From an uncultured archaeon (GTDB lineage Archaea; Asgardarchaeota; Lokiarchaeia; Sigyniarchaeales; SOKP01), in NCBI GenBank assembly GCA_964583985.1, contig CAZOYD010000030.1:1-39678 (forward strand): 39,678 bases of DNA. The letters run 5' to 3'. Positions 25,874 to 32,281 of the stretch are shown piece by piece; position 1 is the stretch's first letter, and each line of letters opens with the position of its first letter. Below the pieces are notes generated by a model. That model worked only from the letters and a program-made list of their open reading frames with translations, made no database searches and was not told the origin of the DNA. Position numbers and translations under genes: made by a program.

Positions 25874-25977
25874 GGGAGGGTGGTCTAGCTTGGTATGATA
25901 CAACAACTCAAGCATCTTGGGTAATATTAAATTGGCTGGGGGCCAAGTGGTCGAGGGTTCGAATCCCTCTCCTCCCA
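25874..25977 (+). tRNA. tRNA-Pro(GGG) with a 30-nt intron (25902-25931) at position 27/28
   Basis: Acceptor GGGAGGG/TCCTCCC+A; removing the intron restores stem CTTGG/CCAAG around loop CTGGGGG; T arm GAGGG-TTCGAAT-CCCTC; BHB central helix TGAT/ATTA. Confidence 0.9.
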
Positions 25978-26052
25978 CTTATTTTTCAAATAAATTTTAT
26001 AATATAACGTGAATTATAATTATCAAATTTTTAATATTAAAGAGAAAGAATA

Positions 26053-26697
26053 ATGATATTATTACATAATCCTCAAGCAACTCAAGATGCTTTAAATATA
26101 TTGAGAAGGGGAGATCTTTTTGATTTAAGTGTCATATTCATGCTTGTAGTAGTGCTCTATATTTATTTCAGTGAAGTTAAAAATAAAAATTGGGGAGCCA
26201 TCACTGCTGGTTTATCATTATATACAATTCATTGGTTTGTTGAAATCATCAACAGCTTGGTTCAGACATTTTCGGGTCATGCATTGTGGACCGTTCCCGC
26301 GGGAACGTCCTTCTTAATCTTGATTGGTTTAGGAATAGAATTAAATTTAATGTTTGCTATCGTTGGGATCGCTCAGAGCAAATTATTACCCGATAATCCA
26401 AAAGAAATCATGTTCTCAATTGGGAGAATAGCTGTTCCAAAACCACTTGCTATTGCTATAGGTAATGCTTTAATAGCATCGATAATAGAGATATTCCTCA
26501 CTTATACACGAACGTTTGTATGGGTGTGGGAATGGTGGAATGCAATAACAGTATTTATTTTTGTATACATTCCTTTCTTTGTAGTTTCTGCCTATTCTTA
26601 TTATTGGAAACCTAAAACGCAGAAATCATTCTTAATATCCATGGGAATCATTGATGTGACCTTACTAATTGTCTTTGGCAGCTTACACATGATTTAA
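26053..26697 (+). CDS. Uncharacterised multi-pass membrane protein
   Basis: Six to seven hydrophobic segments; HWFVEIIN, GIEL and IIEI with intramembrane Glu. Confidence 0.8.
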   Translation: MILLHNPQATQDALNILRRGDLFDLSVIFMLVVVLYIYFSEVKNKNWGAITAGLSLYTIHWFVEIINSLVQTFSGHALWTVPAGTSFLILIGLGIELNLMFAIVGIAQSKLLPDNPKEIMFSIGRIAVPKPLAIAIGNALIASIIEIFLTYTRTFVWVWEWWNAITVFIFVYIPFFVVSAYSYYWKPKTQKSFLISMGIIDVTLLIVFGSLHMI

Positions 26698-26817
26698 TTT
26701 TTAAAATCTTTTCTTTTTCTTTTTAAATAACCATAATAAATTAGTTTTAGGTATAATTATTTATATTTGAATATTCTATGTTTATATTATATTTACAAGA
26801 AAAGAGATCGATCCAAC

Positions 26818-27117
26818 ATGAGCGAAGCGGAAGCAGCAGATAAGGGAATGCGCGTATTAGCAGTTTTTGGTGGACTTGTGGCAATTATAGAGGCCGTATT
26901 GCAATTTATAGGTGCCGGTTTAATGCCTTATGGTTTTGGTATATTAGGAGCTGTTTTTTCGGTAGTATTTGCTATTATAGCTATTGCACTAGGAATTAAA
27001 CCAATAAGTTATACTCCTTTTATAATCGCAATTTTAGGTGTACTTTTAATAGTATTTGCAAGTCTGATTGGAGGAATAATAGTTCTTCTTGCCACATTTA
27101 TAGGATTTATAAGCTAA
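26818..27117 (+). CDS. Small hydrophobic membrane protein
   Basis: ATG 26818 (MSEAEAADKG) then 3-4 Gly/Ala-rich TM segments; T-rich tract after the stop. Confidence 0.75.
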   Translation: MSEAEAADKGMRVLAVFGGLVAIIEAVLQFIGAGLMPYGFGILGAVFSVVFAIIAIALGIKPISYTPFIIAILGVLLIVFASLIGGIIVLLATFIGFIS

Positions 27118-27154
27118 ATCACAGTCTTTTTTTTATTTTCATTTTTCAATATAA

Positions 27155-28015
27155 TTAAATGCGATTTGAAAGCAAAGAGAGCGCTATTTTTATCGCCCCT
27201 ATTATCTCAGATATGTTGCCAACTCTTGAAGTGTCAATTATTAACTTTTCTAAACCTAAATATAACGCGCCATAAGCCTTTCCACCTCCAAGATGCACCA
27301 GAGTGCGATAAATTAGATTTCCTGAGATTCCATCTGGAGCAAATATTAGATTTGATTTATTTTCTATGGCTTTTTCAATCAAAATCTCGGCATTAAACAT
27401 TTGAATTTCAGGGTCTTTTTCTTGAAAGAATGATACTATTTTTTCAGCTATTTCAAGTGATTTATCAACGAGGATATCGCGTCCTTTGTCTTCTTTTCTA
27501 CCACCACTTAAAATGCTTACTTTAGGCGTTATTCCAACAAAAAGGAAAAATTTTAACGCACTTTCAATAAAGTCAATCTTGCTTTTGTAATCTCCATATT
27601 CATCAATTCCTACGGGGGCAAAGAAAAACTGATGTCCTTTATAGGTTTCTAATAAAGCCAATCGATTTATTTTTGTTATTTTGAAAAGATTTCTAATATT
27701 TTCAAGGAACTTATTTGAACTCAAACTTCCGCGTATAGCTGTATCAATCAGATCATCCTTTAAATATTTTAATATTTCATACTCAGGCACATCACTCTTA
27801 ATCAGATGAATTTTTGTTTTAGATTTATCCAATTCAATATTTTGAGAGAGAATGTTAAAATCGTTATCACTAATAAATAAATATATCTTAGTTTCATATT
27901 TACTTTGAAAATTTGTTATCGCAGAGGCAATTTTAAGGTTTTGCTCCTTAGATTTCCCTAATCCAATCCCAATTTTTGCTTCCTTTTTTAGCTCAATAGA
28001 ATTAAAATACTTCAT
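27155..28015 (-). CDS. mtxX: MtxX / methanogenesis marker 4 family protein
   Basis: AIRGSLSS, FFAPVGIDE, SGGRKEDKGRD, ILIE, APDGISGNLIYRTLVHLGGG...GA, DTSR. Confidence 0.85.
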   Translation of the reverse strand: MKYFNSIELKKEAKIGIGLGKSKEQNLKIASAITNFQSKYETKIYLFISDNDFNILSQNIELDKSKTKIHLIKSDVPEYEILKYLKDDLIDTAIRGSLSSNKFLENIRNLFKITKINRLALLETYKGHQFFFAPVGIDEYGDYKSKIDFIESALKFFLFVGITPKVSILSGGRKEDKGRDILVDKSLEIAEKIVSFFQEKDPEIQMFNAEILIEKAIENKSNLIFAPDGISGNLIYRTLVHLGGGKAYGALYLGLEKLIIDTSRVGNISEIIGAIKIALSLLSNRI

Positions 28016-30956: not shown

Positions 30957-31037
30957 AACGTAAAACCACTGTTCAAGTTTAATAAATAAATTTATTAATT
31001 AAATTCTCTAATTTCCCATATTAGTAATATCTTTCTA

Positions 31038-31340
31038 ATGCAATTAATGATGAGTTCTAATTATTATCGCGGTTATATTTTAATTCGATTAAAACAAATT
31101 GGGATGGAATGGAATGTCGTGGATAAATTGACAAATTTAACCTCTTCAGAAACAGATGAAAATTGGAAGATTGGCTATGTGACTCCTGTATATGGAGGTT
31201 GGGATCTAGTAGTTGAATGTAAATTTCGAAAGTTGCATGAGTTAGATAAAATCATTGCTTATCTTACGACTGAAGAAGAATTGAGTTCTTGGATCGAAGA
31301 AACAACGACTTTAGTCTCGAACAATCCAGACAGCCTGTAA
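31038..31340 (+). CDS. Lrp/AsnC ligand-binding-domain-like protein
   Basis: GYILI..., VYGGWDLVVE, IEETTTLV pattern; no HTH. Confidence 0.75.
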   Translation: MQLMMSSNYYRGYILIRLKQIGMEWNVVDKLTNLTSSETDENWKIGYVTPVYGGWDLVVECKFRKLHELDKIIAYLTTEEELSSWIEETTTLVSNNPDSL

Positions 31341-31403
31341 TTATCTTTTGATACGTCCCTATATATTTTAACAAAATAATTTTTTTTAAAACTTAAAAAA
31401 TTC

Positions 31404-32069
31404 CTAAAGCTTAATCTTGAGTAGATCAATAACATCTTCAACAGTTACATTGGATAAATCTTGAACAATTAAATCAGCATGACGGAGCTTTACATAATCA
31501 TGAGTTGTAGTTAAAGCGATACATTTCATATTGGCACTTTTTGCAGCTTCAATACCTACTGGGGCATCTTCAATCACAACGCAATTTTCTGGTTTGACAT
31601 ATATTTCTTGAGATGCAAATAAGAACACGTCTGGAGAGGGTTTCCCGTTCTGTACATCTGCAGCAGTTATTATACTATCAAAAAATTTTTCAATTTTTAG
31701 AGATTTTAAGAGTAGGTCTACATTTTCTGGGGGTCCGCTTGATCCTACTGCTAATTTGAAATTATTTGCCTTTAAATCCTTTATTAATTCTATGACTCCA
31801 GGTAAGGGTTTGATCTTATCTTTAACTATTTCTCTATAATATGTTTCCTTTAATTGAGCCCATTTTTCAACTAAATTCGGATCTACATTTCTACCAACTA
31901 ATTTTCGAGTAATGTATATACTTTGCTGACCAAAAGTGGCTTCAAAAAACTGTTTATTAAATATTAAATCAATTTCACTTGCCATTTTCACCCAACTTTC
32001 AAAATGGATTGGGCCTGTATCTACCAATACTCCGTCAACGTCAAAGATTACACCATAATTATTAAACAT
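31404..32069 (-). CDS. HAD-family phosphatase (beta-phosphoglucomutase-like)
   Basis: FDVDGVLVDT, VGSS, GKPSPDVF, IEDAPVGIEAA; start at ATG 32069. Confidence 0.92.
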   Translation of the reverse strand: MFNNYGVIFDVDGVLVDTGPIHFESWVKMASEIDLIFNKQFFEATFGQQSIYITRKLVGRNVDPNLVEKWAQLKETYYREIVKDKIKPLPGVIELIKDLKANNFKLAVGSSGPPENVDLLLKSLKIEKFFDSIITAADVQNGKPSPDVFLFASQEIYVKPENCVVIEDAPVGIEAAKSANMKCIALTTTHDYVKLRHADLIVQDLSNVTVEDVIDLLKIKL

Positions 32070-32146
32070 AGGTTTGACCTTAAATAACAATTAGATAATT
32101 ATTATAGAGATGTTTAATTTTTAAAAATTATAAAATCATAACACAA

Positions 32147-32281
32147 GACCCGGTAGTCTAGCTAATTCTAAGAATTTATCTCGGGATCTAGAATGGATAG
32201 GGCGCTGGCTTGCGGAGCCAGATATCGAGGGTTCAAACCTTTTTGGTTTCAGCAATGAGGGAACATTTCCCCCCCGGGTCA
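32147..32281 (+). tRNA. tRNA-Arg(GCG) with two 30-nt introns (32164-32193 in the D-loop; 32237-32266 in the T-loop)
   Basis: Acceptor GACCCGG/CCGGGTC+A; anticodon arm CTGGC-TTGCGGA-GCCAG; A20 Arg identity element; BHB central helices CTAG/CTAG and GTTC/GAAC, each with 3-nt bulges. Confidence 0.9.

Follow-up and report, generated by a model that had tools for sequence, protein, structure and literature searches.

A 30-nucleotide mode and a common hairpin geometry among the non-canonical tRNA introns of a Lokiarchaeia genome

A 39,678-nucleotide (nt) stretch of DNA from an uncultured archaeon of the Lokiarchaeia (assembly GCA_964583985.1, contig CAZOYD010000030.1; hereafter the window) carries a tRNA-Pro(GGG) gene and a tRNA-Arg(GCG) gene that are interrupted by three introns, unrelated in sequence and each exactly 30 nt long. 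Why should they share a length? A preliminary description, made from the letters of the window, had offered a length ruler in splicing or ligation, a gain mechanism that inserts pieces of fixed length, protection of tRNA genes from integrases, uniform small RNA circles or, with three cases, coincidence. We show here that these are real introns of bulge-helix-bulge (BHB) type that have a standard module, beyond what chance would give, and that 30 nt is a sharp mode and not a rule. The preliminary description overlooked two points: a stem fixed at 9 bp and a loop fixed at 5 nt account for the length, and mRNAs contain the same module. We put the probability that intron size is fixed at the step of gain or copying at about one half. 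The source genome is labeled G000 (assembly size, 3.8 Mb; GC content, 31.7%), other G-numbers denote compared genomes, and C-numbers denote contigs.

Intron length in the window, the genome and the Asgard archaea

Excision of the three introns in silico yielded 75-nt cloverleaves that ARAGORN called as tRNA-Pro(GGG) and tRNA-Arg(GCG); on the unspliced window it called zero tRNAs, and when run over the whole genome with introns allowed it returned mostly noise. We also used our own structure-aware parser, which applies a flat, length-independent intron penalty and rewards BHB motifs. It gave identical junctions at 27/28, 17/17a and 58/59, so the three 30-nt intervals and their boundaries stand as first described (Table 1), with a 4-bp central helix, two 3-nt bulges and an inner helix at each. 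Two traits that had been singled out proved less distinctive: an initial A is common to all three but is found in 30 of the 48 non-canonical introns of the genome, and the 4-nt exon complement followed by two bulge bases, although present, is merely the BHB motif required of every such intron.

Next, we looked at length across the genome. The parser recovered 45 tRNA genes; Pro-TGG and Arg-CCG were not found in the assembly, and Ile-GAT was divided between contig ends. The 48 non-canonical introns measured 25 (2 introns), 27 (1), 28 (3), 29 (8), 30 (20), 31 (5), 32 (4), 33 (1), 35 (2), 39 (1) and 63 nt (1), which places 20/48 at exactly 30 nt and 40/48 at 28 to 32 nt; the canonical introns (n = 12) spanned 16 to 50 nt, with 1/12 at 30 nt. 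Leaving out the three window introns, 17/45 non-canonical introns were still exactly 30 nt (P value = 8 × 10−8 versus a flat 25- to 35-nt distribution). The genome-wide peak was thus strong, and a distribution without a peak, which the preliminary description had named as refuting its reading, was not observed.

Could the calls themselves, or luck, have produced this peak? The parser rewards BHB motifs, and three of three window introns at exactly 30 nt has a P value of ∼0.07 even given the genome's own length distribution, so the suggestion of coincidence holds in part for that exactness but not for the peak. The penalty is length neutral, however, and parser lengths agreed with the published calls compared for genomes G055 (Atabeya-1) and G081 (Freya), including the same 13, 17, 20 and 34+28 nt in Atabeya-1. 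In addition, two motif-free tests both pointed to +30 nt. One, an RNase HII Pfam search, is described below. The other used a pattern of the 5′ part of the T-arm, 26 to 40 free bases and the 3′ part of the T-arm, with neither the parser nor BHB rules; in six genomes of relatives, 39/76 matches lay at exactly +30 nt out of 15 possible lengths. We consider coincidence or a boundary-calling artifact a negligible explanation.

The mode extends beyond this genome. The 71 intron families of the genus, defined by site and sequence, had a median of 30 nt (30 families at exactly 30 nt and 57 within 28 to 32 nt). The Pro-GGG 27/28 intron was 30 nt in 16/17 genus genomes having an intron there, across many substitutions, and the Arg-GCG 58/59 intron was 30 nt in 9/9 genus genomes with the intron in a first sample; the Arg-GCG 17/17a intron was likewise 30 nt in G027. 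Intron presence was patchy, and in Pro-GGG (25/26 and 27/28) and Thr-TGT (58/59 and 59/60) neighboring sites held 30-mers that were unrelated to each other. Among Asgard intron families, 112/174 non-canonical versus 22/67 canonical ones measured 28 to 32 nt (Fisher test, P value = 1 × 10−5), in samples that were partial, biased to genes still matched by Rfam and drawn from kin that are not independent. Median non-canonical lengths were 29 nt (same family), 31 nt (same order), 30, 30, 28.5 (Freya) and 31 nt (Atabeya-1).

Departures from the mode also persisted. Non-canonical introns of 17 to 27 and 33 to 63 nt occurred in G000 and its relatives, and introns of 14 to 22 and 35 to 63 nt persisted across whole clades, such as Ser-GCT 22/23 (19 to 20 nt in 7 genomes) and Arg-GCG 45/46 (26 to 37 nt). 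Lengths were tightest at T-loop sites (interquartile range, 30 to 31 nt versus 27 to 32 nt in the D-arm), and introns showed a deficit of indels relative to their flanks (P value = 0.03). The T-loop introns of unassigned metagenome archaea measured 18 to 33 nt. Outside tRNAs, an ab initio scan for a BHB motif plus hairpin, which was too insensitive, found no length excess over shuffled sequences. The longest non-canonical intron of G000, in the D-loop of tRNA-Leu(TAA), is 63 nt (62 nt in G027) and is also readable as a tandem pair of introns, 29 and 34 nt long, that share one exon helix.

A hairpin module shared by tRNA and protein genes

The 30-mers fold in a single register, 1 + 9 + 5 + 9 + 4 + 2. 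Their common length results from this fixed module of one bulge base, a 9-bp stem with a 5-nt loop, a 4-nt exon complement and two bulge bases. The nine stem positions were Watson-Crick paired in 72% of cases, versus 29% in shuffled sequences and 27 to 33% in shifted registers, and the next pair inward was at background level. The register was replicated in 21 families collected later; in the 76 pooled families, pairs 1 to 9 were formed in 45 to 59, pairs 10 and 11 in 25/76 and 20/76, and 40/76 folded freely with a 5-nt loop. The loop was biased toward A-N-Y-T-(C/A), with T14 in 50/76 (P value = 5 × 10−6) and C15 in 33/76 (P value = 9 × 10−7) relative to within-loop composition, and this bias was reproduced in fresh data and was alike at T-loop and other sites. 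Stem sequences were unrelated between sites, and the loop, though fast changing, retained its bias. Selection on stability as the sole cause of length was rejected, since length did not fall with GC content (rho = +0.18) and the core energies of 30-mers varied from −0.4 to −12 kcal/mol. Templating by the local exon, direct or inverted, was not detected (best match, 0.32 versus 0.23 over hundreds of offsets), and likeness to the antisense T-arm was weak (P value = 0.006, uncorrected).

A 30-unit ruler might also be sought in chromatin: five histone genes lie in G000, two of them in the window, and an Asgard histone is reported to cover 30 bp per dimer (bioRxiv 10.1101/2025.05.24.653377), so that inserts might be captured from histone-protected fragments or tolerated as keeping phase. 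The match is numerical, and it leaves the hairpin register, the loop bias and the free length of canonical introns all unexplained; there are no genomic donors, and although protein indels showed a small 10-amino-acid bump (5 cases), those inspected were not BHB hairpins. We regard this explanation as very improbable.

Three protein genes of G000 carry BHB-shaped inserts of similar size. A 30-nt insert brings an in-frame stop into DEAGRGP, the catalytic motif of RNase HII (rnhB), and 31-nt inserts frameshift rpo1N and dnaG; removing them in silico restored the conserved motif in each. The three mRNAs are presumably spliced. The sharing of the module with these genes implies that its size is independent of the tRNA body. 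Across the genus, the RNase HII Pfam match was extended by 30 nt with a stop in 12 genomes and was intact in 25 (37 in total), patchily across clades, in a search that would underdetect inserts of frameshifting length; all 12 carriers held one family with the 9+5 shape. A paralogue-based tblastn search for mRNA inserts gave one plausible case only, of 29 nt, and a motif search for uL11 did not find that gene. Comparison with a homologue in G083 showed that a protein gene on C66 contains a BHB-like insert of 29 nt (Table 1).

Table 1. Coordinates of the tRNA genes, introns, inserts and other features mentioned in the text
Feature	Contig	Coordinates	Strand	Basis or structure
tRNA-Pro(GGG) gene, one intron	window	25874..25977	+	Rfam RF00005 match 25874-25977; ARAGORN calls spliced form
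30-nt BHB intron of tRNA-Pro(GGG) at 27/28	window	25902..25931	+	ARAGORN on spliced form; structural parser. Initial A; arms 25903-25911 and 25917-25925 (7/9 paired); loop 25912-25916; exon complement 25926-25929 pairs with 25896-25899, then two bulge bases; central helix TGAT/ATTA
tRNA-Arg(GCG) gene, two introns	window	32147..32281	+	ARAGORN on spliced form; structural parser
30-nt BHB intron of tRNA-Arg(GCG) at 17/17a (D-loop)	window	32164..32193	+	Arms 32165-32173 and 32179-32187 (8/9 paired); loop 32174-32178; exon complement 32188-32191 pairs with 32158-32161; central helix CTAG/CTAG
30-nt BHB intron of tRNA-Arg(GCG) at 58/59 (T-loop)	window	32237..32266	+	Arms 32238-32246 and 32252-32260 (7/9 paired); loop 32247-32251; exon complement 32261-32264 pairs with 32231-32234; central helix GTTC/GAAC
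Insert in rnhB (L805)	C1	127777-127806	-	BHB-shaped
Insert in rpo1N	C2	24757-24787	-	BHB-shaped
Insert in dnaG	C26	12729-12759	+	BHB-shaped
Insert in a protein gene	C66	14354-14382	-	BHB-like
tRNA-Lys(TTT)	C1	171541-171643	+	Intron at 59/60
tRNA-Leu(TAA) (L184)	C8	28951-29122	-	D-loop intron
tRNA-Ile(TAT) (L177)	C27	21822-21996	-	Three introns
tRNA-Cys(GCA)	C87	6852-6930	-	No intron called
tRNA-Glu(CTC)	C45	6054-6159		32-nt intron
tRNA-Glu(CTC)	C19	50725-50830		32-nt intron
SRP19	window	25390-25788	-	
Glu/Gln-tRNA synthetase	window	29196-30956	-	
Histone gene	window	18662-18838	-	PF00808, tandem
Histone gene	window	19257-19433	-	PF00808, tandem

In the window, SRP19 lies head-to-head with the tRNA-Pro gene, the Glu/Gln-tRNA synthetase gene sits between the two tRNA genes, and two HAD hydrolase genes flank tRNA-Arg. 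No integrase was found among ten scanned neighbor genes of the tRNAs; protection from integrases or uniform RNA circles alone would not explain intron length. The mature Arg(GCG) body varies strongly within the genus, and G006 and G026 have a different body at that anticodon, which suggests tRNA gene replacement. Elsewhere in G000, the tRNA-Ile with three introns has the anticodon TAT, not a modified CAT, and is conserved in the genus; the variable arm of tRNA-Cys(GCA), a 79-nt gene, is long; and the two near-identical tRNA-Glu(CTC) genes, whose introns have diverged, may reflect 5% contamination. In G007 (C80), G011 (C212 and C82) and G084 (C1), tRNA genes lacking introns are densely clustered, and some of them have A34 anticodons; these clusters probably stem from viruses, mobile elements or contamination.

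Copying, gain and splicing as sources of a fixed size

We then asked whether introns are related to one another. Same-position intron pairs across tRNA types exceeded the null expectation (5 versus 0.4 at a score of at least 10), with 59/60 introns alike in Ile-TAT and Ser-GGA on one contig (C27) of G000, and with introns alike at matching positions in four tRNAs of G084. In Freya, the tRNA-Phe introns at 30/31 and 53/54 had a similar core and an identical 4-nt arm, a copy across positions. The 59/60 T-loop intron of the G000 tRNA-Lys(TTT) gene was identical at 27/30 positions to that of the distant G020 and absent in sister species; its upstream flank is 85% like that of sisters that lack the intron, and the flanks follow the species tree. 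This pattern suggests that the gene acquired its 3′ part laterally, and the intron was probably copied between species.

Such copies, within and between species, are what would be expected if one ancient 30-nt intron had spread from RNA to RNA by transposition, a route proposed for the Thermoproteales, with its length kept by rare indels and its geometry read by nothing. Plain inheritance of this kind is improbable, in our estimate: no stem sequence is common across sites while the fast-changing loop holds its bias, and a lineage that drifts within the genus and is not filtered should not stay centered at 28 to 31 nt across Asgard families. Only one clear similar pair occurred among 53 introns of G000, and high-identity families of the Thermoproteales type were not seen.

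How would such introns be removed? Two EndA paralogues (alpha/beta; 28% identical; 205 to 207 amino acids, an ordinary size) are encoded in G000, with 3p1z_B as the best solved-structure match (E value = 1 × 10−36), together with RtcB (E value = 3 × 10−167). The catalytic-domain matches of the two EndA subunits lie at C4:51753-51977 and C3:71349-71597. The closest relatives of one EndA subunit are 95 to 71% identical and nearly all labeled Promethearchaeota, which marks G000 as a Lokiarchaeia-type Asgard archaeon, and a stretch of the catalytic subunit can be aligned to the loop region found in the two-subunit enzymes of crenarchaea. The host thus appears to have a two-subunit EndA, predicted to be of broad specificity, and RtcB. 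By established chemistry, EndA would cut each bulge behind its second base, with the exons then ligated by RtcB. A strict length ruler in splicing or ligation, as first proposed, is unlikely given the 17- to 27-nt and 33- to 63-nt introns of G000 and its relatives, but a soft preference is possible.

In that softer form, the Asgard EndA or a partner would read the 9-bp stem and Y-T-C loop when the exon offers no helix adjoining the BHB motif; canonical introns would use the anticodon stem, leaving their length free, and introns of any origin would be driven to 30 nt and kept there. This is a real possibility, which we hold tentatively. It accounts for the variable canonical and uniform non-canonical lengths, for the tightness at T-loop sites, where folding of the tRNA arm has to be overcome, and for orthologues that stay at 30 nt across many substitutions, and it fits the loop T-C kept in 11/12 RNase HII introns and the EndA stretch noted above. 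It sits less well with the clades in which 14- to 22-nt and 35- to 63-nt non-canonical introns persist, with the presence of a Y-T-M loop in only 29/76 30-mers and with EndA subunits of ordinary size, and the indel deficit is expected from selection on pairing alone.

Fixation of size at gain or copying, the reading that we favor, runs as follows. A new intron would be a hairpin copied or rebuilt at a site whose host sequence can pair with the 4-nt arm, and efficient making or moving would be confined to 9+5 hairpins whose loop reads A-N-Y-T-(C/A). After insertion, selection on stem pairing would slow the drift in length, and splicing would tolerate other sizes, so that older introns would scatter. 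Random inserts would seem to contain a hairpin combined with a BHB motif too rarely for filtering to supply it, and it would therefore be copied or built; moreover, since lengths drift within the genus yet stay centered near 30 nt across the phylum, some step must favor the geometry. Introns absent from sister species were exactly 30 nt in 11/16 cases versus 6/20 for shared introns (P value = 0.04).

Several observations count against this reading. The age test is weak, with few sister genomes and one gene reclassified by hand, and "private" introns may mean loss in sisters or lateral gain. The peak is broader outside the genus (0/24 at exactly 30 nt in Atabeya-1), similarity across positions is only slightly above the null, and T14-C15, which most introns of the RNase HII family retain, fits continuing selection as well as it fits a birth mark. 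Of the sources that the preliminary description had in mind, the genome held no donor for its own or genus introns, and viral contigs searched with the T-arm pattern gave no 30-nt excess, their matches being mostly chance. No writer enzyme was found in the assembly either. RVT_1 is absent from the G000 assembly and present in 7/21 relatives, and a passing element could supply reverse transcriptase. LAGLIDADG_1 (PF00961), the one nuclease family to which that search was limited, and Cas1 are absent from G000 and 8 genus relatives, and with neither a donor nor local templating, the marks of casposon or CRISPR capture are missing. Among the ideas first put forward, gain at a fixed length still fits best; the data do not cleanly separate it from a soft splicing preference, and both may act.

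A more specific version is an as yet undescribed Asgard system for writing introns. It would build or copy the fixed 9-bp/5-nt hairpin, which has a loop signature and a 4-nt arm that can be retargeted, into genes for tRNA, structural RNA and protein at any site from which tRNA-splicing enzymes can excise it. We think such a system unlikely; if it existed, it would be a protein-spliced, sequence-free class of mobile introns in the closest prokaryotic relatives of eukaryotes.

Comparison with known introns and mobile elements

The ends of IS200/IS605 HUH elements and of REP/RAYT (repetitive extragenic palindromes and their associated transposases) combine a hairpin with a 4-nt foot arm that pairs with the target, leave no target duplication and come with a conserved hairpin sequence and a Y1 transposase. 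They serve here as a working analogy only: neither a Y1 transposase in G000 nor a conserved hairpin sequence was found, and the missing transposase also weighs against the favored reading.

Closer in form are the short 16S rRNA introns of the Thermoproteales (<50 nt), which are patchy, pair a hairpin with a BHB motif and can spread when co-converted along with a homing endonuclease (Jay and Inskeep 2015, PMC4496867); they resemble the Lokiarchaeia introns in size, structure and patchiness, but the available portion of that paper reports no fixed size, and the LAGLIDADG_1 nuclease family is absent from G000 and 8 genus relatives. The transposed tRNA introns of the Thermoproteales (Fujishima 2010, as summarized in PMC4090602) likewise have BHB motifs at many sites; they are alike in sequence, whereas the Lokiarchaeia introns are alike in shape and mostly not in sequence, with copies between tRNA types mainly at 59/60. 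The same source gives medians of 12 to 25 nt for typical archaeal tRNA introns. The cbf5 pre-mRNA intron of the Desulfurococcales and Sulfolobales (PMC2738675) is also a BHB intron within coding sequence, but it represents one gene and one ancient gain, whereas here a 30- to 31-nt module recurs in rnhB, rpo1N and dnaG.

Asgard tRNA genes are already known to hold many introns per gene at non-canonical sites, with BHB boundaries, repeated recent gains and no general arrival route found (Valentin-Alvarado 2024, PMC11291895; Goswami et al., bioRxiv 10.64898/2026.10.13.758758). The preprint, the most recent survey, calls the entry of intron DNA into these genes the central open problem and gives medians of 22 to 23 nt for all intervening sequences, canonical sites included, in other families. 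Those studies focus on the Freyr-, Jordi- and Atabeyarchaeia and ours on the Lokiarchaeia, with multiplicity, sites, boundaries and recent gains common to both. The text of the preprint contains neither "30 nt" nor "hairpin" nor "Loki," and neither study reports the 9+5 geometry, the loop bias or the 30-nt mode; literature searches, to which subscription journals were largely closed, found no paper on a fixed geometry. What is new here is the 9+5 register, the loop bias, the contrast between canonical and non-canonical introns and the age trend; the abundance of introns, their repeated gain and the question of their arrival were published before. The geometry also gives a template with which to look for introns that lie hidden in Lokiarchaeia annotations and interrupt essential protein genes. 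The shared 30-base hairpin is also a clue to the origin of Asgard introns, and its fixed geometry and loop bias narrow the candidates, since some step must read or build that shape.

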